Made by a program: the position numbers and the translations under genes. Below the pieces are notes generated by a model. That model did not search any database, was not told where the DNA came from, and was given only the letters and a program-made list of their open reading frames with translations. Positions 2,369 through 15,515 of a stretch of DNA of 64,000 nucleotides are shown here, piece after piece. The DNA is taken from IMG/VR virus record IMGVR_UViG_3300009514_000004, positions 14,387 through 78,386 of that record. One strand, given 5' to 3'. The stretch is from a virus. Within the stretch, counting starts at the first letter, position 1. Each line of letters opens with the position of its first letter.

Positions 2369-2533
2369 ATGGCTCTTGCGAAGGTCAAGCCCAACCACAA
2401 CGGCGCGAAGAACGGTGGCGGGGCCTACTGCAAGCGCGCCGAGGCCAAGGCGGCCTCCAAGCGCCGCCGCCGCGCCAACGGCAAGAAGGCGGTCCGCGCG
2501 GCTCTCCGCGACTACGCGAAGAACGGCAAGTAA
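2369..2533 (+). CDS. small Lys/Arg-rich hypothetical protein
   Basis: GGAGG RBS before ATG 2369; high GC3 codons. Confidence 0.75.
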   Translation: MALAKVKPNHNGAKNGGGAYCKRAEAKAASKRRRRANGKKAVRAALRDYAKNGK

Positions 2534-2574
2534 GAGATTCTGGATTTGCGTTGCAAGGACGGGTCACCTAACCT

Positions 2575-3111
2575 GTGGTGGTGACCACCTGCGCGTACAC
2601 CGGCTGCTCCAAGAATTTCAAACCTCGTTGGTCCCGACAGCAGTTCTGCTCTCGCGAGTGCGGGTACGCCTCGAAAAGGGCTCCTCGGGTCGATCTGGTC
2701 TGTTCAAACCCCAGATGCGGTAAAACCTTCTCCCGCAAAGTCTCGAAAACCAAGAACTCTAAGCATGGGTTCCAGTTTTGCGGGCGGAAGTGCAAGGAGT
2801 TCTCGCAAAGCCTGAAAGGTGATGTTGAGGCCATACGTCCAGATCACTACGGGACTGGAGCGGGGCGGAACACCTATCGACGGCTAATACAGACGATCGC
2901 AAAACCTTGTTGCTCGGATTGTGGGGAGGCTCGTCGGTACCTGCTGATGGTTCACCATGTGGATGGCGACCAGGACAACAACAACCCAAGCAATCTGGAA
3001 ATCGTATGCGCCAACTGTCATGTCCGGCGCCACCTCTCGATCAACGTAAACGGTGACTGGGTCTACAATCCACATGCTTTGACACCACGAGAGCAACTCG
3101 CGGGGGTGTAG
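2575..3111 (+). CDS. HNH homing-type endonuclease with N-terminal Zn-finger repeats
   Basis: CxxC...FCS repeats, CSDCGE...VHHVDGD..NN..SNL..VCANCH; lower GC than flanks; stop lies inside tRNA-Ala. Confidence 0.9.
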   Translation: MVVTTCAYTGCSKNFKPRWSRQQFCSRECGYASKRAPRVDLVCSNPRCGKTFSRKVSKTKNSKHGFQFCGRKCKEFSQSLKGDVEAIRPDHYGTGAGRNTYRRLIQTIAKPCCSDCGEARRYLLMVHHVDGDQDNNNPSNLEIVCANCHVRRHLSINVNGDWVYNPHALTPREQLAGV

Positions 3112-3175
3112 CTCAACGGTAGAGCACCTGGCTTGCAACCAGGGGATGGCGGTTCGATTCCGCCCACTTCCACCA
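3102..3175 (+). tRNA. tRNA-Ala(TGC)
   Basis: Cloverleaf, loop CT-TGC-AA, G3.U70, CCA. Confidence 0.95.
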
Positions 3176-3182
3176 AATACTC

Positions 3183-3255
3183 GGCGACGTCCAGGTGGCC
3201 TGGGCTCGGTCTGCAACACCGGTACCTGTCGGTTCGACTCCGACCGTCGCCTCCA
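3183..3255 (+). tRNA. tRNA-Cys(GCA)
   Basis: GGCGACG/CGTCGCC, loop CT-GCA-AC, U73, CCA. Confidence 0.93.
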
Positions 3256-3315
3256 GCTCAAGCGAGGCGTAGGGAAGCTCGAGTCCCCCTGCGCTGAGCG
3301 CGAGGTCCTCCCACG

Positions 3316-3756
3316 TTGATCGCCGTGGGGACAAGGAAGGGAACCCCTCCCCCTACTGCCGTCGTACCGTACCGGCTCCACCGGCTAGTCTTCGGCGGTG
3401 TCGTGGGGAGGGGTAGCGCTCAGACCACCGAAGACCACAGGAGAGCACGATGGGACGCAAGCGGAGGAGCAGGGCCTAACCTCGAGGTTGTAGGCCAGAC
3501 CGAGGACGGGTGGCGCGTCGTGCGCGGTACCTTCGAGTTCTTCGACACGTACGGGCTGCCCCTGGACATCGTCCTCGACATGCTCAGGCAGCGCCGGATG
3601 ATGCCCGACTGGACGCACCTGTACGATAGGTGTCTCGAGGCAGGGTGGCATCCAGAGAGATCCTTCCGGCGGCTTCAACAGATCGTCGGTGACGTCTACG
3701 GCCCTTCCTTCCGCGAGGAGTGGGAGCGCCGGATGAGAAAGCACATGGGGGTGTAG
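3316..3756 (+). CDS. small protein with AlaRS-like FDTYGLPLD helical motif (start uncertain)
   Basis: FEFFDTYGLPLDIVLDML resembles AlaRS F.LYDTYGFP.DLT; the best RBS+ATG (3450) is out of frame; stop lies inside tRNA-Asn. Confidence 0.6.
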   Translation: MIAVGTRKGTPPPTAVVPYRLHRLVFGGVVGRGSAQTTEDHRRARWDASGGAGPNLEVVGQTEDGWRVVRGTFEFFDTYGLPLDIVLDMLRQRRMMPDWTHLYDRCLEAGWHPERSFRRLQQIVGDVYGPSFREEWERRMRKHMGV

Positions 3757-3822
3757 CTCAGTGGCCAGAGCGCTAGGCTGTTAACCTGGAGTGCGTCGGT
3801 TCGAATCCGACCACCCCCTCCA
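3747..3822 (+). tRNA. tRNA-Asn(GTT)
   Basis: GGGGGTG/CACCCCC, loop CT-GTT-AA, CCA. Confidence 0.92.
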
Positions 3823-3928
3823 ATTCTTGCCCGGGGCTCTTTCGGGAGCTACTCTGGGTTCACCGGCATGTCGCGATCCGGGCCAACAGCGCGGCGTCAA
3901 TCCAACTCAAACAACGAAGGATGACGCC

Positions 3929-4366
3929 ATGACTACGACCATTCGCGCCAAGTTCCGCTGCATGTCCATCACCCGCACCTGGGACGGTATGGAGACCTGT
4001 ACCTTCCGACCCGTGAAGCGTGACTCCGGCCAGGACCCCGAAAACGAGATCTTCTGGAAGTACACCCCCAGCGGGTCGGCCAAGCTGACTTTCATGGGTG
4101 CGTGCGATTACCAGCCCGGGGCCTACTACTACATCGACATGACCCTCGCCGAGGACGGCGAGTGGACTCTCGACCTCGTCACCCGGCGAGGCAACGGGAG
4201 CGGCGATGTCGAGCTGGCCAGCACCTGGAAGCCGGTCACCGAAGGCGGCCTCCGGCACGGTAAGCTGGAGATGGGGATCGACTCCGCCCGGGTGATCGAC
4301 CTCTTCGGCCTCCCGGACTCCAAGTGGAACGTCGTGTTCACCTACGCTGAGGCGTCGGACGGCTGA
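3929..4366 (+). CDS. phage hypothetical protein (RAKF...EN..FWKYTPSG type)
   Basis: RBS GAAGGA; coding-like codon bias. Confidence 0.75.
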   Translation: MTTTIRAKFRCMSITRTWDGMETCTFRPVKRDSGQDPENEIFWKYTPSGSAKLTFMGACDYQPGAYYYIDMTLAEDGEWTLDLVTRRGNGSGDVELASTWKPVTEGGLRHGKLEMGIDSARVIDLFGLPDSKWNVVFTYAEASDG

Positions 4367-4575
4367 CCGCCGGCGCACTCGAGGCACACCAGGATCTCGC
4401 GCACGATCTCGTAGCCTTCCCCTCCGGGGTCGTGCGTCTCCCTCTGGGATCTGTTGTACCGCGACATGTTCGCGTCCCGGCGGGGTGGGTATCGGACGGG
4501 TCTCGTCTCGATCACCAACCTCCGGGCCGGCGTGTTAGCGGCAACAACCCTCGAACAACGCTGACATCTGTACAC
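4342..4575 (-). CDS. small Zn-ribbon protein
   Basis: CxxC at both ends; DPGGEGYEIVRE motif. Confidence 0.7.
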   Translation of the reverse strand: MYRCQRCSRVVAANTPARRLVIETRPVRYPPRRDANMSRYNRSQRETHDPGGEGYEIVREILVCLECAGGQPSDASA

Positions 4576-4681
4576 TCCGTACCAACCTCGTGGCCGACGC
4601 TACCCGGGACGGCTTACCAGGGGCGTTGTCTCCTTCGCGGAGACGCGGGTACTATACCGACTCAGCATCAAGGAGATCATC

Positions 4682-5446
4682 ATGAGTGGACAGGGCGTAC
4701 AACGACGAGGGTTCATCAAGTCCCTGTTCGCCGGTGCCGGCGCGGTCGCCGCCTGGTCGACGGTGGCCAAAGCCGCTCCGAAGCCTCAAGCGCTCGAGCG
4801 TCAAGGCAACGGCAAACCGGCCTCCAACCTCCTGCTCGCGGAGCAGGACGAGGTCTGGACTCTGGTCGACGGGTCCAAGCTCCCGGTCCGACGCATCGAG
4901 GTCCAGCTCGACTTCACCCCGGCGGTGACCTGGCAGTTCCTCCCGACCGACGAGATGCTCCGCAAGTGGGGCTACCACGTCGGACCACCGATGCTCGGCG
5001 GCCCTCCCGCCATCTACCCCGAGGACGGGGCGATGAAACGGGTCCAGCGCCGGGTGTTCGCGCGGTTCACCGAGGAGCAGCTTCGGGCCGACTACGTCGC
5101 ACAGAAGGCCGGATTCGACCCGGTCTCCACCGCGGCGCAGCTCCAGAAGGTCTCCCGAGGCGACCTGGTCAAAGCTCTCGAGGAGAAACGGGCCAAGGTC
5201 ATTGCCGAGGACAACGCGACCCCGTTCGACGAGATCCTGCGGCACCGCATGACCAACTGCTTCATCGGGTGGAAGCCGACCCGGCCCGAGGTCTACAAGA
5301 GCCACGACGAGTGGCCGGATCCTCACGGGGTATTCCTCGTGGTCCGTGGCCCGACCACCCTGTACGCCCTCGGCGTGAGTGAGTTCCCGGCGTCGTCCAA
5401 GAACATGCTCATCCAGGCGCCGGCCGCAGCGATCTTCGGTTCATGA
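4682..5446 (+). CDS. hypothetical protein with Tat-like N-terminus
   Basis: QRRGFIKSLFAGAGAVAA; RBS AAGGAG. Confidence 0.75.
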   Translation: MSGQGVQRRGFIKSLFAGAGAVAAWSTVAKAAPKPQALERQGNGKPASNLLLAEQDEVWTLVDGSKLPVRRIEVQLDFTPAVTWQFLPTDEMLRKWGYHVGPPMLGGPPAIYPEDGAMKRVQRRVFARFTEEQLRADYVAQKAGFDPVSTAAQLQKVSRGDLVKALEEKRAKVIAEDNATPFDEILRHRMTNCFIGWKPTRPEVYKSHDEWPDPHGVFLVVRGPTTLYALGVSEFPASSKNMLIQAPAAAIFGS

Positions 5447-5736
5447 GCCGCGAGAACGTCTTCCTGGTGAAGAAGTCGCCCGAGGAGCTTCGGGCGACTG
5501 TCGCCGAGTTGCTCCGGGCGATCCTGGGCAACCATGTGTCGTCGGACGCCCTCCACAGCTCTCCGTTGCGGGAGTTCACAGCCGACGATGTCTTCATCAA
5601 CGCCCACCTGGTCGATCGGGCCGGAGCGCTGCTCAACTGCCTCCTGGCGCTGGGGTACTCCCTGGACGCCAGCGAGTGGACCAGAGAGCTGCTCGACAAG
5701 ACAGACGCCTCGGCGTTGGAACGCATCACGGTCTGA
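5443..5736 (+). CDS. hypothetical protein
   Basis: ATGA overlap with the upstream gene; GC3 bias. Confidence 0.7.
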   Translation: MSRENVFLVKKSPEELRATVAELLRAILGNHVSSDALHSSPLREFTADDVFINAHLVDRAGALLNCLLALGYSLDASEWTRELLDKTDASALERITV

Positions 5737-5766
5737 TGACCCAGGTTGCTCCAAGAGCGTTTTTGA

Positions 5767-5842
5767 TCGGGGGTAGCACAACTGGCGGTGCAGCTGGCTT
5801 TGACCCAGAAGGTTGAGGGTTCGAACCCCTCCCCCCGAGCCA
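5767..5842 (+). tRNA. tRNA-Gln(TTG)
   Basis: TCGGGGG/CCCCCGA, loop CT-TTG-AC, CCA. Confidence 0.9.
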
Positions 5843-5854
5843 ATGACTGCGTCG

Positions 5855-6175
5855 TCAGGGCAGGTAATCCGGCCGGTCCACGATGACCTGGACGTAGCCT
5901 GAAGGGACAGGGCACTCGAGCTGGGTGCCATCGACGCGGATCCCGCTCTTGTACTCCCACCCGCACTCGATCGAGACGTTGCAGAAGGTGTGCAGGCATC
6001 CGTCCCACTGCCAGGAGCAGCACTTCGAGGTACCCGCCTCGTTGCACACCAGAGGGTCTCCGAGGCCCTCTGGGCGCTCTTGGACGACCGGCTTGGCCGG
6101 AAGGGTACATGGGTCCTTGCAGGCCGTCAGAGAGGCCAGAGCGAGGGTCAGGGCGATGATGGTGATGCGCAGCAT
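5855..6175 (-). CDS. Cys-rich lipoprotein
   Basis: Hydrophobic signal ending LTAC (lipobox); several further Cys. Confidence 0.75.
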   Translation of the reverse strand: MLRITIIALTLALASLTACKDPCTLPAKPVVQERPEGLGDPLVCNEAGTSKCCSWQWDGCLHTFCNVSIECGWEYKSGIRVDGTQLECPVPSGYVQVIVDRPDYLP

Positions 6176-6214
6176 GGCGGTCCTCCACAGGAGGGTCGCC
6201 TATAGCGCTCCTAC

Positions 6215-6288
6215 CGCTGCGTAGCACAACTAGGTGGTGCAGTCCCCTCATAAGGGAAAGGTTGTCGGTTCGAATCCGGCCGCAGCGA
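6215..6288 (+). tRNA. tRNA-Met/Ile2(CAT), elongator type, no encoded CCA
   Basis: CGCTGCG/CGCAGCG fully paired, loop CT-CAT-AA; lacks the initiator GGG/CCC stem. Confidence 0.85.
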
Positions 6289-6441
6289 TTTATACCGGGT
6301 AGTCCAGGTTGGGGTTAATCGGTTGTTAAAAGAAGCGGCGTGAGCCCGAGAACAGAAGAACCGGCCAGTTTTGCTGTTGCGGATGTCCTTGGGCTTTCGT
6401 TTGATCGCCGATCCGCAAAGGGCGCATGGGACGTTGGGCAT
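6289..6441 (-). pseudogene. truncated Zn-finger N-terminus of an HNH-type endonuclease
   Basis: MPNVPCALCGSAIKRKPKDIRNSKTGRFFCSRAHAASFNN, similar to the N-terminus of 2575-3111; no nuclease domain; low GC. Confidence 0.55.
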
Positions 6442-6444
6442 GTC

Positions 6445-6523
6445 TGTAGGTTAGTCGAACTTGTGGCTGTGACCAACGCCTAAGCCAGGCCTCGTTGGAG
6501 TTCGAGTCTCCCCCTTGCGACCA
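6445..6523 (+). pseudogene. degenerate tRNA-His(GTG)-like element
   Basis: TGTGG-CTGTGAC-CAACG arm, GGAG-TTCGAGT-CTCC T arm, ends ACCA; D loop deleted, acceptor poorly paired. Confidence 0.5.
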
Positions 6524-6572
6524 CTACTTCCTCTATACGTGTCGCTCAATACAGGCACCGGAGGTGATCGCC

Positions 6573-7337
6573 TTGGGGCGCAAAGAGCGATACAAGAAGC
6601 TGGCCGACAAGTTCCTGCCGACCATGAAGCGCATCTGCGCCGAAGAGGACACACCCTTCCAGGTGTGCTTCGCGCAGCTGCTGGTCGAGTCTGGAGGTCG
6701 CGGCGAGCTGGGCAAGCGGCACAACTACTTCGGGCTCAAGTACCCGAGGGGTAAGTACGCCAAGGTGCTCTGGGAGCGCCTCGGTAAGCCCGGCAAGCAC
6801 GTCAAGATGACGCCGGAGCGGCTCAAAGTCCGCGACCGCAACCATCTCGACAAGCTCCTCAAAAAGGGCGCGGTCTTCAGCGACAAGTTCATGAAGTCGC
6901 CCTACTACGGCAAGTCCGTGCGGCTCAAGATGCCCTGCGCCTTCTGCACTTTCCCGGACATGGAGGCCGGCATCCGCGCCTGGTGCATCTGGATGAAGCG
7001 GAGTCGGTACAAGGACGGCGGTATCTTCGCGACCGATCCCGTTCGCTGGATCGCCTACCGCTGGCTCCGGGGTTACGCGACCGCCAACGCTTACGTCGAA
7101 GCCGTCGTGAAACGGATGAACAGCGTGGCCAAGTACCTTGGCCTCGAGGAGTTCCGGGTCTCGATCGACGACGACCTCGACGAGCTTCTCGACGAGGCCC
7201 GTGAGCTAGGTCCTGGCCGTGACCGGTGGGACCTTGGCAAAGAGGCCCTCGAGGCCAACGGACTGACCGGTGTTCCCTACGAGGTCATCGAGTTCGAGGA
7301 GATGGAGATCGTCGTCGACCTCAACGAGGTGGGTTGA
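6573..7337 (+). CDS. GH73 glucosaminidase-like peptidoglycan hydrolase
   Basis: AQLLVESG..G.L....NYFGLKY and GYATANAY motifs; TTG start after GGAGG chosen. Confidence 0.8.
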   Translation: MGRKERYKKLADKFLPTMKRICAEEDTPFQVCFAQLLVESGGRGELGKRHNYFGLKYPRGKYAKVLWERLGKPGKHVKMTPERLKVRDRNHLDKLLKKGAVFSDKFMKSPYYGKSVRLKMPCAFCTFPDMEAGIRAWCIWMKRSRYKDGGIFATDPVRWIAYRWLRGYATANAYVEAVVKRMNSVAKYLGLEEFRVSIDDDLDELLDEARELGPGRDRWDLGKEALEANGLTGVPYEVIEFEEMEIVVDLNEVG

Positions 7338-7513
7338 TGGTCATCGCGGATTACCCTGGCGCGTACAAGCTCGAAGTCCACGGGACCAAGGTCAAGCTGG
7401 TCCTCGAGACAGAGGACCTGGAAGTCTACCAGACTTACCAGCTGGCCTCGGACCTTTACCGGGCGGGCCATCTGGCCAACCGCGCGGGCGACGACCAGTC
7501 GAAAAAGACTTAG
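7337..7513 (+). CDS. hypothetical protein
   Basis: TGATG coupling with the upstream gene. Confidence 0.65.
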   Translation: MVIADYPGAYKLEVHGTKVKLVLETEDLEVYQTYQLASDLYRAGHLANRAGDDQSKKT

Positions 7514-7537
7514 CCTGGGCTCGCACGGTGACTACCT

Positions 7538-7546
7538 GATGGGGTA
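7538..7546 (+). promoter_or_regulatory. GATGGGGTA motif (candidate phage promoter element)
   Basis: Recurs in intergenic DNA at 9212, 53009 and 57551, with a variant at 62680. Confidence 0.4.
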
Positions 7547-7606
7547 ACTGGGAACGACGCTCGTTGACAACCAGGTCGAAGAAACGGTCCTTTCGGGGAC
7601 CTTTGA

Positions 7607-7682
7607 CGCAGGGTGGAGAAGTGGTCATCTCGCTAGGCTCATAACCTGGAGACCGGAGGTTCGAATCCTCCTCCTGCTACCA
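7607..7682 (+). tRNA. initiator tRNA-fMet(CAT)
   Basis: C1xU72 mismatch, fMet-like D arm TGGAGAAGTGGTCATCTCG, CT-CAT-AA, CCA. Confidence 0.88.
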
Positions 7683-7686
7683 ACAT

Positions 7687-8056
7687 GGGGACGAACTGGT
7701 TTAGACGTGGGTGTCGGAGCCAGGACTGCGTGTCCCGGAGTCAGCGGACCGGGTCAGAAACTGCTGAAACCTTTAAGCGCCAACGACAACGTTTTCGCTC
7801 CTCTCGCACAAGCTGCGTGAGGCGGTCCGCTCGGAGCCTGCTCACGGCGCCGGGTCACGACTGTCATACAATGTGAGCTGGCCGTAGGGATCCAGGTGGG
7901 AGCCTGACCCTCGGTGAGAGCCCGAGAGGGTAACTCCCCGGCACCGTCGAGGTGGGCCGCTTGTGCTCGACGGTGGTGTATGAACGAGCGGGACTACACA
8001 CGTAGACGTTCTGAGCGAAGTTCTCGCGGACTCGGGTTCGACTCCCGACGTCTCCA
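7687..8056 (+). ncRNA. ssrA: tmRNA; tag (A)ANDNVFAPLAQAA at 7779-7820
   Basis: GGGGACG/CGTCTCC-A acceptor with G3.U70, T arm TCGGG-TTCGACT-CCCGA, 370 nt, tag ORF ending AA-stop; CCA not encoded. Confidence 0.95.
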
Positions 8057-8069
8057 AAAGACATGGGCT

Positions 8070-8150
8070 TTGGCTGGTGTGACGTTACGGCTACTTCAAC
8101 CTGTTAAGTTGTTTCTGTACAACCGTGGCACCCTTTCTCAGCCATTCCCA
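8070..8150 (+). ncRNA. Y-RNA-like element B displaying an Asn(GUU) anticodon loop
   Basis: TGGCTG/CAGCCA, GTTACGG/CCGTGGC, CAAC-CTGTTAA-GTTG; homologous to 11582-11660. Confidence 0.7.
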
Positions 8151-8229
8151 CACCTTAGAGGGTCGAGAAGCAGGTGACGAGGGGAGACGGAAGAGAGCTT
8201 CCTAGAACGACCCCTGACCCTCCTTTCAC

Positions 8230-8303
8230 GCGGGCGTAGCTCAACGGTAGAGCACTGGGTTTCCACCCCAGGTATGTCGGTTCGATTCCGTCTGCCCGCT
8301 CCA
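8230..8303 (+). tRNA. tRNA-Gly(TCC)
   Basis: GCGGGCG/TGCCCGC, loop TT-TCC-AC, CCA. Confidence 0.93.
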
Positions 8304-8326
8304 TTCGACCTGGGTACGGTGGCCTC

Positions 8327-8593
8327 ATGGCCTCCCGAGAAGTCCACTGCGCCGACTGCGTCGCCGAGCTGGGTGAGCCCTTTGGGCACGTCCACGACTG
8401 GCTTGACGCGTTCTACCCCGAGCTGGGTCACGACCACCGGCCCGAGCGTCACCACGACGAGGGCGTCGAAGAGGTCCGACGCATGTGGGGTGACCAGGCA
8501 GCTCAGGCCGCCGAGATCCACATCAAGCGCGACTACTACGGCGAGATCCCGACCAAGGACCAGGCCGATCTCTGGAAGCTCCTGATGAGCTAG
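8327..8593 (+). CDS. hypothetical protein
   Basis: GC3-biased ORF; CxxC near the N-terminus. Confidence 0.7.
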   Translation: MASREVHCADCVAELGEPFGHVHDWLDAFYPELGHDHRPERHHDEGVEEVRRMWGDQAAQAAEIHIKRDYYGEIPTKDQADLWKLLMS

Positions 8594-9090
8594 TCGTCTT
8601 CGCGCCGGGACAGCATCATCCTGTCCAGCCGGTCCCAGGCGTCCAGGAGAGCTTGACCCAGGGCGACGACCAGGTCGTCGTGGCTGTGGACGATCATCTG
8701 GCTGCCGGTGTCGCCGATCACGGTCCACCGGCCGGTGAACATCTCGGGCGTGTGCCTGCTCGAGATGGATCCGCGTCGGACGATCGAGAACTGGGCGTAG
8801 GGCGTCGCGTCGGTGAGCAGGTCGAGGAAGACCATGGCCATCCCCGAACCGCCGAGGTCCGGCAACGGCTTGTGCTCTTCCGGGTCGACCTCGATGCCGA
8901 TGCCCGACCCACGGAAGAAGGCGAAAAAGGTCCCCTCGGGCCGGATCTGGACGATGGTGAGCCTGTGCTCGTTCCAGCGCACAGACATCCCCTCCAACCA
9001 GCGCCAGCGCCGGTGACCCAACAGCTCGAGGGCGAGAGCTTCTTCATTCAAGAGATGCCAGCGGGGGCTGTGGGACCTGGGGGGGTCCAT
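8590..9090 (-). CDS. hypothetical protein
   Basis: Convergent ORF with 4-nt stop overlap. Confidence 0.65.
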   Translation of the reverse strand: MDPPRSHSPRWHLLNEEALALELLGHRRWRWLEGMSVRWNEHRLTIVQIRPEGTFFAFFRGSGIGIEVDPEEHKPLPDLGGSGMAMVFLDLLTDATPYAQFSIVRRGSISSRHTPEMFTGRWTVIGDTGSQMIVHSHDDLVVALGQALLDAWDRLDRMMLSRREDD

Positions 9091-9119
9091 TTACTCACCG
9101 GCATCTATAGGCACAACAA

Positions 9120-9196
9120 CGGGGTGTAGCTCAGTCTGGTGGAGCGCTGCGTTCGGGACGCAGAGGCCGCTGGTTCGAATCCAGTCACCCCGACCA
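9120..9196 (+). tRNA. tRNA-Pro(CGG)
   Basis: CGGGGTG/CACCCCG, loop TT-CGG-GA, CCA. Confidence 0.95.
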
Positions 9197-9320
9197 ACAC
9201 CGACTCGATACGATGGGGTACTGTACCAACAGGCGTGCCCAACGGAGCTGCGGCACCCTGGCCAGGGATAAGCGCCTCGAAGGCTAGTCGCAGCTCCTCA
9301 ACGACCTCCTGGACCTCGAC

Positions 9321-10124
9321 ATGATCATCGGACTCACCGGCGCCGCTCGATCCGGCAAGGACACCGTGGCGGACATGCTGCTCCTGCACTGGGTCTTGGG
9401 CAACAACGGCAAAACGATCGCCCGGTGGCTCGAGATCGCGCAGGAAGACCGCAAGGTCAAGTCCAACTGGGCCCGACGTATCCAGGTGGCCGGCCCTCTC
9501 AAGCAGTTTTGCCGAGAGGTCTTCGACTGGACCGAGGAACACACCGACGGCGACCTCAAAGACTCCGAGGACAAGCGTTACAAGCGCAACTGTGGCCGGT
9601 GCGTCGACGGCCAACAGGTGGCCAAGCCGATCGCGGTCGGCAACGATCAAATACGGAACCCCTGCAACGAGATGGGGCCCTGCTCTCACTGCGGCGGGCG
9701 GGGGTTCACCTTCCTCAAGCCGAGGGAGGCGATGCAGCGCCTGGGCTACGACTGGTCGTTCCCGCTGTACCCGACCATCTGGGCAGACAAGGCAGCTCGT
9801 ACGGCCAAAGCGTTCTCCGACGACCCTATCGCGCACCCGGCGCGCAGTACCCCCAAGGAGCGGTTGGCGATCGTGACCGACTGCCGGTTCATCGCCGACA
9901 TCAAGGCGGTGGCCGACGTCGGGGGCATCGTCATCCAGGTTCACCGTGACCACGAGGGTCTGACCGGGGCCGCGGCACAACACCACGGTGAGACGGTGCG
10001 GGACACGCCCGAATTCCAGGCGATCGTCCACCACCACATCTATAACGACGGGACGCTCGACGACCTCAACGACAAGGTCAAGGCGCTCGTAGGCGCACTC
10101 AAGAAGGAGGCCGGCATGAGGTGA
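9321..10124 (+). CDS. deoxynucleoside monophosphate kinase
   Basis: IIGLTGAARSGKDT, A.PLK, PRE.MQRLG and IVTDCRF..D motifs. Confidence 0.88.
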   Translation: MIIGLTGAARSGKDTVADMLLLHWVLGNNGKTIARWLEIAQEDRKVKSNWARRIQVAGPLKQFCREVFDWTEEHTDGDLKDSEDKRYKRNCGRCVDGQQVAKPIAVGNDQIRNPCNEMGPCSHCGGRGFTFLKPREAMQRLGYDWSFPLYPTIWADKAARTAKAFSDDPIAHPARSTPKERLAIVTDCRFIADIKAVADVGGIVIQVHRDHEGLTGAAAQHHGETVRDTPEFQAIVHHHIYNDGTLDDLNDKVKALVGALKKEAGMR

Positions 10125-10142
10125 ACTACCAAGGAGTTCCCC

Positions 10143-10370
10143 ATGTCCCGATCCTTCAAGAAGACCCCCGGCTGGTGTGACCGATCTCCGTTCGCCAAGC
10201 GTCAGGCGAACAAGCGCGTCCGGAAGTACAAGGGCGACGTCTCCAACGGCCGCTCGTACAAGAAGCTCTACTGCTCCTGGAACATCTGTGACTTCCGGTT
10301 CCTCCGCAAGGATGCCCGGTGGCGCAAGTACCCGCAGCGGCAGCCCGACTACAAGGCGCGCATGAAGTAA
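10143..10370 (+). CDS. small basic phage protein (MSRSFKK...NGRSYKKLYCSWNICDF)
   Basis: RBS AAGGAG; stop directly abuts tRNA-Val. Confidence 0.8.
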   Translation: MSRSFKKTPGWCDRSPFAKRQANKRVRKYKGDVSNGRSYKKLYCSWNICDFRFLRKDARWRKYPQRQPDYKARMK

Positions 10371-10442
10371 GGGCCCATAGCTTAATGGGAAAGCGCCGCT
10401 TTGACGTAGCGGAGAGACCTGGTTCGATCCCAGGTGGGCCCA
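10371..10442 (+). tRNA. tRNA-Val(GAC), no encoded CCA
   Basis: GGGCCCA/TGGGCCC, loop TT-GAC-GT. Confidence 0.88.
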
Positions 10443-10593
10443 CTGGCGCCGGGGAGGCCTTAACCCGGATGAACTGCGGACCTCCGAGAAACGCAGCGAG
10501 ATCGTGAACAACGGAACCAGCGGCCACAAGGGCCGCACCTGTTGCCGAGCAGGGCTGGCGGTCTAAGAAGGCGCAGCGCAAGTCGGCACCCAA

Positions 10594-10670
10594 CGGGATG
10601 TAGCTCAGTCTGGTGGAGCGCTTGTCTGGGGGACAAGAGGCCGCAGGTTCGAATCCTGTCATCCCGACCA
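10594..10670 (+). tRNA. tRNA-Pro(GGG)
   Basis: CGGGATG/CATCCCG, loop CT-GGG-GG, CCA. Confidence 0.95.
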
Positions 10671-10707
10671 ACTTGCTTAGTTCGAGACCCGCTCTCGTAG
10701 CTAGGCT

Positions 10708-10811
10708 GACAGCGAGTCCTTCTGACCCAACAGGGTAGCCCAGATCGGTCGGTGCCCGTGGATCGTATCATCGACCGGCAAGTACGGGGTCCACCAGCGG
10801 GGCTCGCTGTC
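10708..10811 (+). ncRNA. candidate pseudoknotted RNA module
   Basis: 12-bp closing helix 10708-19/10800-11; helix 10746-54/10769-77 whose loop complements 10783-94. Confidence 0.5.
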
Positions 10812-10816
10812 TACAC

Positions 10817-10881
10817 GGTGCCGTAGCTCAAAGGTAGAGCAGGCCGAGAGGTCAGACCCCGGTTCGAGTCCGGGCGGTACA
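10817..10881 (+). ncRNA. anticodon-less tRNA mimic (anticodon loop replaced by a GAGA tetraloop)
   Basis: Canonical TAGCTCAAAGGTAGAGCA D arm and CCCGG-TTCGAGT-CCGGG T arm, 6-bp acceptor, GGCC-GAGA-GGTC arm, no CCA. Confidence 0.7.
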
Positions 10882-10885
10882 AGGA

Positions 10886-10957
10886 GCAGGTGGCCCGTCG
10901 ACAGACGGACGGCAAGGAGCCATGGATCCGACCCGCGAGTCCTAGACGGCCATCTGC
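10886..10957 (+). ncRNA. candidate small RNA, 13-bp terminal stem with one bulged C
   Basis: GCAGGTGG(C)CCGTC / GACGGCCATCTGC; inner GGAC/GTCC and GGC-AAGGA-GCC. Confidence 0.45.
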
Positions 10958-10990
10958 AACGTTCCTATACCACAACGACGGGAGGTAGCT

Positions 10991-11575
10991 GTGAGCGACC
11001 CCATGTACGAAGCGGGGTTCCTCGCAGTGACCCCGGAGTTGAGGCAGGCGGTTCTCGAGGGGACCCCCTGGATAGACAGGACCGAGGCCCGGCGTGAGTG
11101 TTTCATGTCCGACGGCGGAGGCCTGTCCTACACCTACGGCAAGGGCAGAGGCGTGCGCACGTACACCTCGATCCCCTACACGTCAGTCGTTCGCGACGTG
11201 CTCGAGTTCGTCAACGGCCTGGTCTTCGCGTGCGGGTGGGCAGCCATGAACGGCTGTTTCCTCAACCGCTACGACCACGACCGGATGCACCTCGGGTGGC
11301 ACGCCGACGACTTCCGCAAGATGGACCACGCGGCTCCGGTCGTCGTGGTCAGCTTCGGCGAGGAGCGCGAGATCTGGTGGCGCAGGGTCGGAGAGCGAGG
11401 GATCACCCCGCCCGATCAGCGTCAGCTCCTGGCCGAGGGGAGCGTCTTCGTGATGCCCCCAGGCTTCCAGCACTCCCACGAGCACCGCATCCCCAAGGGA
11501 GACCGCTCGATGGGTCCGAGGGTCTCGATGACCTTCCGTCGGTTCCTCCCGCAGGGGGAAGAGCCGATAGCGTAA
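10991..11575 (+). CDS. alkB: AlkB-family 2OG-Fe(II) dioxygenase
   Basis: N.Y......LGWHADD, SFGEER, H.IPK and RVSMTFR motifs. Confidence 0.9.
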   Translation: MSDPMYEAGFLAVTPELRQAVLEGTPWIDRTEARRECFMSDGGGLSYTYGKGRGVRTYTSIPYTSVVRDVLEFVNGLVFACGWAAMNGCFLNRYDHDRMHLGWHADDFRKMDHAAPVVVVSFGEEREIWWRRVGERGITPPDQRQLLAEGSVFVMPPGFQHSHEHRIPKGDRSMGPRVSMTFRRFLPQGEEPIA

Positions 11576-11581
11576 ACCGGG

Positions 11582-11660
11582 TTGGCTGGTGCGACTTACG
11601 GGTTACTTCACACTTGCACTGTGGTTTTCCATAACCTGTGAGGCTTTTCTCAGCCTTCCC
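11582..11660 (+). ncRNA. Y-RNA-like element A displaying an Ala(UGC) anticodon loop
   Basis: GGCTG/CAGCC, 10-bp TTACGGGTTA/TAACCTGTGA, CACA-CTTGCAC-TGTG; about 40 nt upstream of ro60. Confidence 0.72.
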
Positions 11661-11698
11661 ATCCACTCGTACTGATTCTCTCCTACGGAGGTGTGACC

Positions 11699-13408
11699 AT
11701 GAGCTTCATCAACCCAACTGCGTCCAGCGTCGTCAAGAGCGTTACCGACCCCAAGAACCAGCCCGTGATCGCCACGCCCGACAAGGCCGCCGGCGAGCAC
11801 CTCAACTGGATGGGCGGCATCAGCTTCGACATCAACGACCCGCTGCTCCGGCTCCAGGTGGCCGCGTCGAGCTGCTTCTTCGGCGAGCCGATGTACTACC
11901 ACAAGGACTCGGGCGACAAGCGACCCAAGCGGGTTACCGCACCGCAGCGTCGCGCGCGACTCAACGCCGCCCAGCTCACGAAGCTCCGGGACACCCTGGG
12001 GGCGGTCGATCCGGCCGAGTGGCGATCTCTGACGCCGGCCGACCTCATGGTCAAGGCCATCGACGAGGCCCTGGCGCACGACCCGGAGAAGACCCTCGAG
12101 TTCGCGGCCTTCCTGCGGCAGACGCTGCACATCCGGACGACCCCGCAGGTCATCATGGTCCGCGCGGCGCTCCTGGACAGCGTCAAGGGCACAGGGCTCA
12201 TCACCAAGTACGCAACGGCCATCATCGGCCGGCTCGACGAGGTGACGGTCCAGTACGCCTACTTCCTGTCCCTCGGCAAGGGCAAGACCCCGCCGAAGAA
12301 CCTGAAGCGCAACTGGGCCCGCGCCATCCAGCGTGCCAACGAGTACCAGCTCGCGAAGTACCGGATGGAGGGTCGCTCGGTGAACCTCTACGACGTCGTC
12401 AACATCAGCCACCCGAAGGGGCCCCTGATCGACAAGCTCATGAAGGGCAAGCTGAAGCTCGGCGGTGACGGCCGAAAGACCTGGGAGTCCATCCGCTCCG
12501 GCGGCGGCTCCTGGACCGAGGCCGCGGCGGTCATGGGCCACATGGCTCTGCTGAGGAACCTCCGCAACCTGTCGGAGAACGACGCCCTGACCAAGGAGCT
12601 GTGCGACAAGCTCGTCGCCGGCGCCGCCAAGGGCAAGCAGCTCCCGTTCCGGTACTTCAGCGCCTTCAAGGCTCTGGAGGGCAAGGCCAAGAGCGGGCTG
12701 GTGTTCGACGCCATCGAGGCCGCGCTCGAGGCTTCCATCGGGAACCTCCCGCGCTTCTCGGGCCGCGTGTGCTCCCTGGTCGACAACTCGGGCTCCGCCT
12801 GGGGGACGACCACGTCCTCGATGGGGTCCATGCACATGGCTTCCATCGGGAACCTCATGGGGGTCCTGACGGGCAAGGCTTCCGACGAGGGTCACATCGG
12901 CATCTTCGGTGACCACCTCAAGATGCGGCCGGTCCGCAAGAAGGAGTCGACCTTCGACGCCCTCAAGGCCATCGACCAGATCGGCCGCAACGAGGTCGGA
13001 GGGGCTACCGAGCACGGCGTGTGGCTGTTCTGGCGCGACGCCATCAAGCAGCGCCAGCACTGGGACACCGTGTTCGTCTACAGCGACATGCAGGCCGGTC
13101 ACGGCGGGCTCTACGGCAACAAGCCGGGTGAGTACGCTGACTACCTGTGGGGCGATGACGGGTACGCCCGGTACATCGACGTCGCCAAGCTGGTCAAGAC
13201 GTACCGCGAGAAGGTCAACCCGAAGGTGAACGTCTTCCTCGTCCAGATCGCCGGGTACCAGGACACCCTGATTCCCGAGTTCTACGACAGGACGTACATC
13301 CTCGGCGGCTGGTCCGACCAGCTGCTGCGCTTCGCGGCGCAGATGATCGCCATGACCGAGCAGGCACCGACGGCACAGCCTCCCTCCCAGGAGCCGTCGG
13401 CAACCTGA
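11699..13408 (+). CDS. rsr: Ro60/TROVE-vWA RNA-binding protein
   Basis: TROVE-like helical region (A..LR....IRT.PQ, ALLRNLRNL, LPFRYFSA) plus vWA VDNSGS and VFVYSDMQ. Confidence 0.9.
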   Translation: MSFINPTASSVVKSVTDPKNQPVIATPDKAAGEHLNWMGGISFDINDPLLRLQVAASSCFFGEPMYYHKDSGDKRPKRVTAPQRRARLNAAQLTKLRDTLGAVDPAEWRSLTPADLMVKAIDEALAHDPEKTLEFAAFLRQTLHIRTTPQVIMVRAALLDSVKGTGLITKYATAIIGRLDEVTVQYAYFLSLGKGKTPPKNLKRNWARAIQRANEYQLAKYRMEGRSVNLYDVVNISHPKGPLIDKLMKGKLKLGGDGRKTWESIRSGGGSWTEAAAVMGHMALLRNLRNLSENDALTKELCDKLVAGAAKGKQLPFRYFSAFKALEGKAKSGLVFDAIEAALEASIGNLPRFSGRVCSLVDNSGSAWGTTTSSMGSMHMASIGNLMGVLTGKASDEGHIGIFGDHLKMRPVRKKESTFDALKAIDQIGRNEVGGATEHGVWLFWRDAIKQRQHWDTVFVYSDMQAGHGGLYGNKPGEYADYLWGDDGYARYIDVAKLVKTYREKVNPKVNVFLVQIAGYQDTLIPEFYDRTYILGGWSDQLLRFAAQMIAMTEQAPTAQPPSQEPSAT

Positions 13409-13414
13409 CTCTCC

Positions 13415-13455
13415 GGTAGGGGGCTCCCATCCGCACCTGGGTGGGGGCTTCCTGC
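13415..13455 (+). terminator. long GC hairpin after ro60
   Basis: GGTAGG...CCCATCC-GCACCT-GGGTGGG...CCTGCC; no U tract. Confidence 0.4.
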
Positions 13456-13493
13456 CACCCCTCTCGGTAGAAAGGCTATGGATCCGGGTAGAC

Positions 13494-13886
13494 ATGAGCA
13501 TTCCAACCTGGGCACCTCCTGGCCATTTCAACTACAACGTCTACGGCGACCCCGTGGCTATCGCCCACATCAAGGGGTGGGCTGCGGCGGAGAACGTCAC
13601 CCCCCACGAAGGTGGGGACGATGACACCGAGACCTTCTTCGGGGGATTCTTCACCGAAGCGGAGATCGAGCGCCTCCGGCGCGTTGCCGGCGACACGGTC
13701 GAGGAGGCTCATTTCCTGGGCCTCCGCACCGACGACGTCGAGACCTACCGGGCCTGGCTCAAAGGCCAGGACATCCCGGTGGTCCACGAGGTCCTCGAGC
13801 AACCCGAGGGCTTCTTCAACGCCTACTACCGCCCGGACGACATCGAGACGATCTCGACCGGGTACCTGGGCACTCCGCCTCTGTAG
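13494..13886 (+). CDS. acidic hypothetical protein
   Basis: GC3 bias; stop codon is the TAG at positions 8-10 of tRNA-Thr. Confidence 0.75.
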   Translation: MSIPTWAPPGHFNYNVYGDPVAIAHIKGWAAAENVTPHEGGDDDTETFFGGFFTEAEIERLRRVAGDTVEEAHFLGLRTDDVETYRAWLKGQDIPVVHEVLEQPEGFFNAYYRPDDIETISTGYLGTPPL

Positions 13887-13950
13887 CTCAACGGTAGAGC
13901 CCCGGCCTTGTAAGCCGGTGATGTCGGTTCGAACCCGACCGGGGGCTCCA
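13877..13950 (+). tRNA. tRNA-Thr(TGT)
   Basis: GCCTCTG/CGGGGGC, loop CT-TGT-AA, CCA. Confidence 0.92.
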
Positions 13951-13955
13951 GATCC

Positions 13956-14192
13956 TCAGCTGAGGATTCCCTTCACCGTGCGGAGTCGGTAACCGTCGGC
14001 TACCAGATGGCCGAGCTGGTCGACGAGCTTGTCGACCGTGTCGGTGGGGAGCGGGGAGTGCGACTTGTCGGACAGGTCGCGGAAGTGGAAGCCGAGATCG
14101 GACGCGTAGTCCTGATCGCAGGCCCAGATACAGACGGCGCGGCCGTCTGGGAGAGCGAGGCCTTTGCAGCCACACTCGAAGCGGACGAACAT
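13956..14192 (-). CDS. hypothetical protein
   Basis: AAGGAGGA RBS before ATG 14192. Confidence 0.7.
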   Translation of the reverse strand: MFVRFECGCKGLALPDGRAVCIWACDQDYASDLGFHFRDLSDKSHSPLPTDTVDKLVDQLGHLVADGYRLRTVKGILS

Positions 14193-14345
14193 GCGTCCTC
14201 CTTGGGTTGAGGTTTCGTCCTCTGACCTCTCTACGAGGTCGCCCCCGAGAATCAGCAAGCCTCGTGCCATCTCTAAGTCCGCGAACCCAGGTGATCCCCA
14301 CCTGGTCGACCGCAAGAAATCCTGCGGTCCTGTAAGAGATCTTAC

Positions 14346-14419
14346 GCCTGTGTAGCTCAACGGTAGAGCAGCCGCCTCGTAAGCGACCGATGAGGGTTCG
14401 ACTCCCTCCGCAGGCTCCA
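14346..14419 (+). tRNA. tRNA-Thr(CGT)
   Basis: GCCTGTG/CGCAGGC, loop CT-CGT-AA, CCA. Confidence 0.92.
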
Positions 14420-14422
14420 GAT

Positions 14423-14497
14423 GCCGGTATAGCACAACGGCCAGTGCACCGCCGTGGTAAGGCGGGGATCCGGGTTCAACTCCCGGTGCCGGCTCCA
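14423..14497 (+). tRNA. tRNA-Thr(GGT)
   Basis: GCCGGTA/TGCCGGC, loop GT-GGT-AA (unusual G32), CCA. Confidence 0.9.
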
Positions 14498-14502
14498 CCT
14501 TC

Positions 14503-14581
14503 GTCCCTGTCGTCTAGTCAGGCCCAGGACACCAGGCTCTCAACCTGGAGACGGCGAGTTCAAATCTCCCCAGGGACGCCA
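14503..14581 (+). tRNA. tRNA-Glu(CTC)
   Basis: GTCCCTG/CAGGGAC, loop CT-CTC-AA, GCCA. Confidence 0.92.
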
Positions 14582-14605
14582 GATCTTCTATAGGCCTTCC
14601 TCTGT

Positions 14606-14788
14606 ATGGAATCCTTCCCCGACTACAACGCCTGGCTCACCGTCGCGTGCATCCTCTGGATCGCCATCCTGGTCCTCCTGCTGCACGTCACAGCCCGATG
14701 GGTGTTCGGTGACCAGGAGGCCCCACCCAAGCCCAAGAAGACCCCAAAGAGGCCCCCTGGGGCCCCTCACAAGACTGTGCTCTCGTAG
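14606..14788 (+). CDS. small single-pass membrane protein
   Basis: One TM helix then a Pro/Lys tail; stop lies inside tRNA-Arg(CCG). Confidence 0.6.
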   Translation: MESFPDYNAWLTVACILWIAILVLLLHVTARWVFGDQEAPPKPKKTPKRPPGAPHKTVLS

Positions 14789-14853
14789 TTCAACGGATAG
14801 AACGCAGGTCTCCGGAACCTGAGATAGAGGTTCGATTCCTCTCGGGAGTACCA
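14779..14853 (+). tRNA. tRNA-Arg(CCG)
   Basis: GCTCTCG/CGGGAGT, loop CT-CCG-GA, CCA; near-paralog of Arg(GCG). Confidence 0.93.
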
Positions 14854-14891
14854 TCCGCTCTAGCGGCCCCATCGTCGTGTTCCTACAATGT

Positions 14892-14967
14892 GCGTCCGTG
14901 GTCTAACTGGAAAGGCGCTCGGCTTCTAACCGGGAAGATGGGGGTTCGACTCCTCCCGGACGCGCCA
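14892..14967 (+). tRNA. tRNA-Arg(TCT)
   Basis: GCGTCCG/CGGACGC, loop CT-TCT-AA, CCA. Confidence 0.93.
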
Positions 14968-14996
14968 CCAACACAGAAGGAGAAAGGAGAGCAGAA

Positions 14997-15515
14997 ATGG
15001 ACACCCTTGTACTCAGCATGGCTTTCGAGCCTATGGACCAGATCGACTGGCAGAGGGCGATGACCCTCTGGATGGGTGGTCGGGTCGAGGTCGTAGAGGC
15101 TTATGATGACCGGGTGTGTCGAACGTCGACCGATGAGTACCAGGTGCCTGCGGTGGTCCGCTTCTTGAACTCGCTTCGACGCCGGCGCAGATCGGTCCGC
15201 TTCTCCCGGGACAACGTCTTCTTACGCGACAGCGGGCGGTGCCAATACTGCCTCCGCCGCATCGCGAGAGACGCGGCCACGTACGACCACGTCGTGCCTC
15301 GAGCCCAGGGCGGGGTCACGAACTGGAAGAACGTCGTCATCGCGTGCTCTCCGTGCAACCAGCGGAAGGCCGACCGGACTCCAGAGCAGTCGGGCATGTA
15401 CCCGCGCAACTCCCCGGTGAGGCCGCGCCACCTTCCGGATGTCCGGGAGATGCAGCTCCGACGCCGCAAGGCGAACATGCCAGAGATCTGGTTGCCCTAC
15501 CTGGGCCTGTCCTGA
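14997..15515 (+). CDS. HNH endonuclease (McrA-like)
   Basis: FSRDNVFLRD..RCQYC, TYDHVVPRAQGG and AC..CNQRK motifs. Confidence 0.92.
   Translation: MDTLVLSMAFEPMDQIDWQRAMTLWMGGRVEVVEAYDDRVCRTSTDEYQVPAVVRFLNSLRRRRRSVRFSRDNVFLRDSGRCQYCLRRIARDAATYDHVVPRAQGGVTNWKNVVIACSPCNQRKADRTPEQSGMYPRNSPVRPRHLPDVREMQLRRRKANMPEIWLPYLGLS

Follow-up and report, generated by a model that had tools for sequence, protein, structure and literature searches.

Genes that are packed against the next tRNA gene, and that sometimes run into it, are already known from bacteriophage T5. In the curated T5 annotation, 10 junctions between a coding sequence (CDS) and a tRNA gene lie at 28.0-35.5 kb, and 10/10 are within 15 nucleotides (nt). 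At 4 of the 10, the CDS overlaps the tRNA 5' end: T5.057 by 6 nt, hegC (HNH) by 14, hegD (HNH) by 23 and T5.069 by 24. No transfer-messenger RNA (tmRNA) above the Rfam cut-off was found in T5. In mitochondria, tRNAs punctuate the transcript: their excision sets mRNA ends at or within the stop codon, and an incomplete U or UA is completed by polyadenylation. In E. coli, an endonuclease removes the stop codon of the arfA message and tmRNA tags the product for degradation (PMC8012679). The report on T4 SegB describes an endonuclease gene lodged among tRNA genes, with homing as the explanation of its flush position (PMC2330249). Here, we analyse a window of 64,000 nt, bases 14387-78386 of a 138,380-bp linear virus record (IMG/VR IMGVR_UViG_3300009514_000004; GC 63.6%), in which four genes end on the TAG formed by nucleotides U8-A9-G10 of the tRNA that follows. 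We consider it likely that this conserved TAG is a backstop stop codon for genes packed against a tRNA, and that the overlap is a by-product of packing and not a device.

The original prediction placed the ends of four open reading frames (ORFs), 2575-3111, 3316-3756, 13494-13886 and 14606-14788, on the TAG at tRNA nt 8-10, with a 10-nt overlap each time. ARAGORN, Rfam cmscan and a frame-by-frame scan reproduced these coordinates exactly, with both tRNA programs agreeing on +1 positions of 3102, 3747, 13877 and 14779 and the overlap measuring 10 nt in 4/4 junctions. All of these features are on the + strand. The first gene (ORF2575; 2575..3111, 178 aa), for a putative HNH homing-type endonuclease, takes its codons A-G-V and its TAG from nt 1-10 of tRNA-Ala(TGC) (3102..3175; U8-A9-G10 at 3109-3111; RF00005, 72.7 bits, model positions 1-71). 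The second (ORF3316; 3316..3756, core 3475-3756), for a small protein resembling a fragment of alanyl-tRNA synthetase (AlaRS), draws its tail M-G-V and its TAG from nt 1-10 of tRNA-Asn(GTT) (3747..3822; TAG at 3754-3756; 73.2 bits). An acidic orphan of 130 aa (ORF13494; 13494..13886), encoded directly 3' of a Ro60/TROVE gene, stops on the TAG of tRNA-Thr(TGT) (13877..13950; TAG at 13884-13886; 68.3 bits). The fourth (ORF14606; 14606..14788), whose 60-aa product has a single hydrophobic helix and a tail rich in Lys and Pro, stops on that of tRNA-Arg(CCG) (14779..14853; TAG at 14786-14788; 65.9 bits). The four overlapped tRNAs are intact, scoring 66-73 bits across the full Rfam model. According to the frame scan, an RNase P cut at +1 would land within the third-from-last codon at all four junctions. 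These junctions are overlaps of the T5 type: the stop lies in the 5' part of the tRNA, both partners are real, and the setting is a tight multi-tRNA island with HNH genes.

Long open frames are common at 64% GC, so that one or more of the four ORFs might be false genes, or might end earlier, as an artefact of gene calling. Four more ORFs, 63-158 aa in length (5534-5776, 5925-6224, 8653-9129 and 14164-14355), do stop on a TAG at nt 8-10 without coding signal, their coding scores being clearly negative. ORF14606, of 60 aa, has no homologues, and conservation is lacking over the first ~50 residues of ORF3316. To score coding potential, a codon-usage model was trained on 42 long high-GC3 (third-position GC) ORFs of the record, and ORFs were compared with shifted, reverse and background models; null ORFs were of similar length and nested out of frame within confident genes. 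The scores of all four ORFs exceed every null ORF, which argues against an artefact. ORF13494 scored 47 (GC3 0.85), a value reached by 0/81 null ORFs, and ORF14606 scored 14 (GC3 0.85), reached by 0/180. Moreover, none of the four frames carries an in-frame stop ahead of the tRNA, homology runs up to the very C-terminus for the HNH protein and ORF3316, and the core fold of ORF3316 is predicted confidently. No homologues of ORF13494 and ORF14606 were found, a set of 5.8 billion proteins returning the query itself only; both are recorded in a large protein collection with identical ends. As single-protein queries, ORF13494 and ORF3316 gave no matches by tblastn or IMG/VR scans. We regard all four overlapping ORFs as credible genes, with only the start codon of ORF3316 uncertain (3316, 3403 or later), and an artefact as very improbable.

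The position of the stops reflects a property of tRNAs in general. As an earlier caveat that most tRNAs carry TAG at nt 8-10 had anticipated, this triplet is present in 25/41 tRNAs here, and TAA in 1/41, so that any open frame entering in that register must end there. TAG is also an ordinary stop codon in this phage, terminating 53/133 confident genes. Recoding of TAG, or a suppressor tRNA, was ruled out on this count and by the occurrence of a CTA anticodon in 0/41 tRNAs. The spacings at the 11 confident CDS-to-tRNA junctions were -10 (four times), 0 (twice), 5, 30, 45, 269 and 526 nt; 7/11 thus overlap the tRNA or fall within 5 nt of it. With spacings mostly flush, the four overlaps represent the extreme of a general arrangement. 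For comparison, the TAA of a 75-aa gene (10143..10370, + strand) abuts +1 of tRNA-Val(GAC) with a gap of 0, and a second junction with a gap of 0 lies upstream of the window, where a gene at genome positions 12989-13453 precedes tRNA-Arg(CCT).

A backstop role for U8-A9-G10 can be put as a series of steps. Island genes would be packed within 0-15 nt of the next tRNA, and when a native stop is lost by deletion, indel, insertion of a mobile HNH cassette or stop loss, the frame would enter the tRNA. In one register the first in-frame stop would then be the TAG at nt 8-10, at the cost of only 3 unconstrained extra residues. Such a state would be sticky, with the TAG held by selection on the tRNA and upstream stops rarely arising at 64% GC. 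Deeper overlaps would probably be purged by selection, and the nt 8-10 state would persist and accumulate, especially at high GC. We infer both the direction of this evolutionary change and the neutrality of the overlap. The model accounts for the recurrence of overlaps before different tRNAs, for a switch between two related loci described below (L025 and L027), for variable protein tails and for T5 overlaps in a phage without tmRNA. Even an overlap that serves no function is expected to be conserved, since the tRNA itself fixes the TAG. Compaction or insertion alone had been named earlier as possibly sufficient, and this is now the better-supported reading.

The family of ORF3316 allows a comparison across loci. 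The protein has 625 homologues at E<=1e-3, and its alignment delimits a conserved core of ~90 residues (3475-3756). The core was predicted by AlphaFold2 with a predicted local distance difference test (pLDDT) score of 96.8; the final helix stops 2 residues before the stop codon, and the tRNA-encoded residues fall outside the predicted fold. For the locus scan, a closer set of 7 sequences (A3) replaced a 40-sequence alignment (A2) whose diversity was too great. In all, 24 distinct loci were compared. Besides the window, they comprised 3 IMG/VR loci, 17 metagenome loci (duplicates merged) and 3 loci from look-ups. A tRNA overlaps the gene or begins at most 10 nt downstream at 10/24 loci, and at six of these ten tight junctions the stop is at nt 8-10. 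Five of the six are the window, L022 and L036, all before tRNA-Asn, L025 before tRNA-Val(CAC) and L026 before tRNA-Lys(CTT). The sixth, L038, lies before tRNA-Val(TAC) on a contig of 37% GC and uses TAA. In L039, the stop is a TGA at nt 6-8 of tRNA-Gly, nt 8-10 being AAA there. The remaining three tight junctions have a stop of their own, with gaps of 0, 6 and 10 nt.

Acceptor stems differ among these junctions (GGGGGTG, TCCGACA, TGGGGTG, AGGCGGG, GGACTCA and GCGGGAT), and the protein tails past the conserved EWE..M motif vary in length and sequence, each stopping at the first stop offered by its tRNA. L025 and L027 share 82% identity across the junction and the same tRNA-Val(CAC), and a 1-nt indel separates them, four bases ahead of a flush TAG (-3..-1); in L025 this TAG is out of frame and the gene continues to the nt 8-10 stop. 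All three loci with a junction between a gene of this family and tRNA-Asn retain the overlap.

A stretch of ~30-60 residues of the ORF3316 protein matched Pfam PF01411 at positions 387-415 of 552 with 15 bits (cut-off 30), a PDB profile match covered E. coli AlaRS residues 394-424 (E=0.005), and the best Foldseek matches were AlaRS, though at E>=0.08. The core is thus weakly but consistently similar to a subdomain of the AlaRS catalytic fragment, at about E. coli residues 380-440. An identity as alanyl-tRNA synthetase was rejected, the resemblance extending to one subdomain and not to a class II catalytic core with its aminoacylation motifs. The family, often found within phage tRNA islands, may bind tRNA. 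Its consensus reads G.T.DG..VV.G.F..VDT.GLPLD...PDW...GW.P.R...RL..AVGDVYGP..R.EW. Public records of the family (P0004, P0006, P0016, P0019, P0021 and P0032) often have N-terminal extensions that contain peptides like GFDP, GFEP and GGSNP. To judge from these peptides, which resemble translated tRNA T-arms, gene callers seem to have extended the ORF back through the upstream tRNA.

The HNH gene ORF2575 matches PHROG 1271 (E=2e-16), its codon usage is atypical, and its Pfam HNH and HNH_3 scores are slightly under the cut-offs. Its one close homologue is L001 (2456-3016) in LR756511.1, a 595-kb uncultured phage, with 42% identity over residues 2-178 and an equal C-terminal length. Between the two proteins H127, H128, N140, C145, C148, H149 and H153 are invariant, and the combination of an HNH motif, conserved His/Asn and flanking Cys pairs identifies ORF2575 as an HNH endonuclease. 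L001 sits between tRNA-Ala(TGC) and tRNA-Val(TAC), and its stop is a TAG whose G is tRNA-Val +1, a 1-nt overlap. Eight further homologues from IMG/VR all have stops of their own (8/8); 5/8 are within tRNA islands and one copy is broken. A tRNA lies directly downstream in 0/8, the nearest being ~0.8-1.1 kb past the stop. The family thus habitually inhabits tRNA islands, but the overlap is not one of its traits. Its members (L001, L003-L008) combine N-terminal Cys-pair repeats with the HNH motif, occur in tRNA islands of at least 5 other, unrelated large phages, and usually begin 10-100 nt past a tRNA 3' end. The family looks like a homing endonuclease lineage specialised for tRNA islands. Elements of this kind are known to home into conserved sequence flanking tRNAs, as T4 SegB does (PMC2330249), and this would explain the flush position of the HNH gene. 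Conservation of the overlap in relatives, which the original prediction had proposed as a test, was therefore found in part: the overlap recurs in the ORF3316 family, but L027 has its own stop, and among the HNH homologues only L001 overlaps, by 1 nt.

Overlap rates were also compared with those of other phages. In LR756511.1 (42% GC), which bears a tmRNA, upstream ORFs of 60 codons or more form 32 junctions, mostly with gaps of 0-18 nt. Clear overlaps occur at 5/32: two genes stop at nt 8, one at nt 13 and one at nt 20, and a fifth overlaps its tRNA by 1 nt. KVP40, with no tmRNA, shows one 2-nt overlap among 9 junctions. Faust has a tmRNA and 0/11 annotated overlaps, counted with the reservation that its annotators may have avoided overlaps. 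Bxz1 (64% GC) was left out as a high-GC control, given the long spurious ORFs running through its tRNA arrays and no codon model. The overlap rate in the present record does not differ from that of T5 (4/11 vs 4/10, Fisher p=1.0), nor, in this small sample, does that of tmRNA-bearing phages from that of tmRNA-less phages (9/54 vs 5/19, Fisher p=0.5). The expectation that overlaps would be commoner here than among abutting genes elsewhere is contradicted by the T5 comparison.

Several observations nevertheless weigh against a purely passive backstop. All four overlaps are in the register that meets nt 8-10, for which a binomial test against equal frames gives p=0.012. The share of junctions with a stop at nt 8-10 is higher in this phage than in LR756511.1 (4/11 vs 2/32, Fisher p=0.03), and the tight junctions of the ORF3316 family also overlap more often than the junctions of LR756511.1 (7/10 vs 5/32, Fisher p=0.002). 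Furthermore, the three gene-to-tRNA-Asn loci of that family differ by tail indels of 3n nt, so that the register is preserved. High GC together with a sticky neutral state could produce this register and this excess, and both would be expected under selection too.

Selection is the core of the explanation that the original prediction put forward, a programmed shut-off. RNase P cleaves precursors at tRNA +1 and, by textbook biology, this cut would leave an upstream message that shares a transcript with the tRNA without a stop codon. Ribosomes would stall at the 3' end so formed, the tmRNA of phage or host would add ANDNVFAPLAQAA and the protein would be degraded, with the overlap selected for restricting the amount or the timing of such proteins, a potentially harmful HNH nuclease being one example. 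The same process might work as an expression valve, in which processed transcripts give only tagged, short-lived island proteins that are kept low or restricted to early infection. It would operate in phages that have both a tRNA island and a tmRNA, with homing nucleases and the AlaRS-fragment-like protein among its targets. The geometry is right in 4/4 junctions, a full-length tmRNA lies within the same island, and cleavage would destroy the stop of the close HNH homologue L001 as well, the G of its TAG being tRNA-Val +1. The tRNA-island HNH genes of T5, hegC and hegD, likewise end within tRNAs. In the ORF3316 family the overlap recurs before four different tRNAs (Asn, Val-CAC, Lys and Val-UAC), and the excess of nt 8-10 stops there is the one observation that keeps selection viable. 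A precedent for control by nuclease-made non-stop messages exists in the arfA mRNA, which is cut by RNase III (PMC8012679). However, T5 has overlaps without a phage tmRNA, phages that bear a tmRNA show no higher rate of overlap (p=0.5), L027 stops on a codon of its own at the very junction where L025 overlaps, and in most HNH homologues the stop is likewise the gene's own, with no tRNA adjacent. The tRNA alone explains the conservation of the TAG, the record has no SmpB gene, and the four proteins (an HNH nuclease, an AlaRS-like fragment, an acidic orphan and a small membrane protein) have no common function. Conservation beyond other constraints, as would be expected of an arfA-type control, was thus not found: the TAG is fixed by the tRNA, L027 and the HNH homologues depart from the pattern, and there is no link to tmRNA. 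We therefore consider it unlikely that the overlaps were selected for shut-off, and hold a role as an expression valve to be improbable too. Loss of the stop to RNase P would, even as a side effect, lower the yield of the four proteins and give host or phage tmRNA work to do.

A further possibility is that the tightness itself is selected, for the benefit of the tRNA. Rho acts on untranslated RNA, and translation up to a structured tRNA would deny it naked RNA, so that transcription reaches the tRNA. In line with this, nearly all junctions are within ~15 nt in this phage, T5 and LR756511.1, which is tighter than packing alone requires. This reading explains the tightness but not the overlap itself. 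Some tRNAs also appear to have their own promoter-like CTATAG 15 nt upstream, and at one junction a terminator-like hairpin (5747-5766) sits between gene and tRNA. Protection from Rho is in our view quite unlikely to be the cause, and the backstop stop codon remains the reading that we prefer.

The island around these genes holds other features. It packs 41 tRNAs and one tmRNA into 19 kb, as determined by ARAGORN and Rfam cmscan. The tmRNA, with the tag ANDNVFAPLAQAA, spans 7687..8056 on the + strand and was found by ARAGORN and, at full length, by Rfam (RF00023, 127 bits). No SmpB gene was found in the 138-kb record, that is, in the fragment that carries the tmRNA. CheckV puts the completeness of the record at ~26%; it is probably one piece of a far larger phage, whose genome, from this value for a 138-kb record, may reach several hundred kb. 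Close relatives were not detected, a megablast of 2500-15000 against a phage collection giving tRNA-sized matches only. Between the island tRNAs are genes for a NADAR-domain protein, 2 HNH endonucleases, a glucosaminidase-domain protein, a deoxynucleoside monophosphate (dNMP) kinase-like protein, a 2-oxoglutarate-Fe(II) (2OG-Fe(II)) oxygenase and Ro60/TROVE. The Ro60/TROVE-like RNA-binding protein (11693-13408) has its best phage homologues in Bacillus phage G (40% identity) and Desulfovibrio phage 7757 (38%). The second HNH endonuclease (14997-15515; Pfam HNH_5, E=6e-14) starts 29 nt past tRNA-Arg(TCT). The tRNA island of Streptomyces phage Faust also contains a Ro-like gene, a tmRNA and HNH genes.

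Two kinds of possible transcription signals were noted in the window. The palindrome CTATAG occurs 7 times (766, 1552, 6200, 9105, 14588 and 15580, and also 42993) against 1.6 expected, and 6/7 copies are within the tRNA island. Copies precede tRNA-Met at 6215 and tRNA-Pro at 9120 by 15 nt, and the ATG at 14606 by 12-18 nt; two of the four non-coding ORFs ending on a TAG at nt 8-10 precede tRNAs with CTATAG at -15. CTATAG may serve as the -10 element in promoters of the island, giving leaderless or near-leaderless transcripts. A consensus scan for sigma-70 promoters and terminators gave 1 promoter-like site where 1.9 were expected. At 5747-5766 and 7586-7606, short GC hairpins with T-runs behind them end in a TGA that abuts +1 of tRNA-Gln and of tRNA-Met, respectively, and look like terminators set flush against the next tRNA.

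The arrangement has consequences for annotation and for the biology of infection. Genes in tRNA islands can legitimately end in the next tRNA, and pipelines that forbid overlap between CDS and tRNA will truncate or drop them. The opposite error also exists, ORFs being extended through tRNA genes, as the peptides in the public records of the ORF3316 family suggest. A further prediction is that translation and tRNA processing conflict on one transcript, a conflict from which non-stop messages would arise naturally in the course of infection. Should the products prove to be tagged, they would count among the first substrates named for a phage-encoded tmRNA. Literature searches returned no paper describing phage genes that stop inside tRNAs or non-stop messages made by RNase P.

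Among known systems, mitochondrial punctuation shares with this locus the flanking of coding regions by tRNAs. It differs in that the TAG here is complete and lies 7 nt inside the tRNA, where excision would remove it and leave nothing to be completed; L001, with its 1-nt overlap, comes nearer to the mitochondrial case. In arfA, the ORF contains a dedicated hairpin at which RNase III cuts, and experiments have shown the regulatory logic, whereas the cut here would be a putative side effect of tRNA maturation. The homing endonucleases of phage tRNA clusters (T4 SegB and the F-Tfl enzymes of T5) are lodged between tRNA genes as ORF2575 is, although SegB is a GIY-YIG enzyme and ORF2575 an HNH protein for which homing is putative. 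The closest likeness is to T5, where genes on the same strand are also packed on the next tRNA, HNH genes are among them, stops fall within the 5' portion of the tRNA, and junctions without overlap have gaps of 0-15 nt. T5 differs in that its stops lie 6, 14, 23 and 24 nt into the tRNA and never at nt 8-10, that one overlapped tRNA is annotated as a pseudogene, and that the phage is without tmRNA; all four stops here are U8-A9-G10, the first possible one. Cumulatively, the T5-type junction is already known, and what is new is the repeated use of U8-A9-G10 in high-GC islands and across one protein family.

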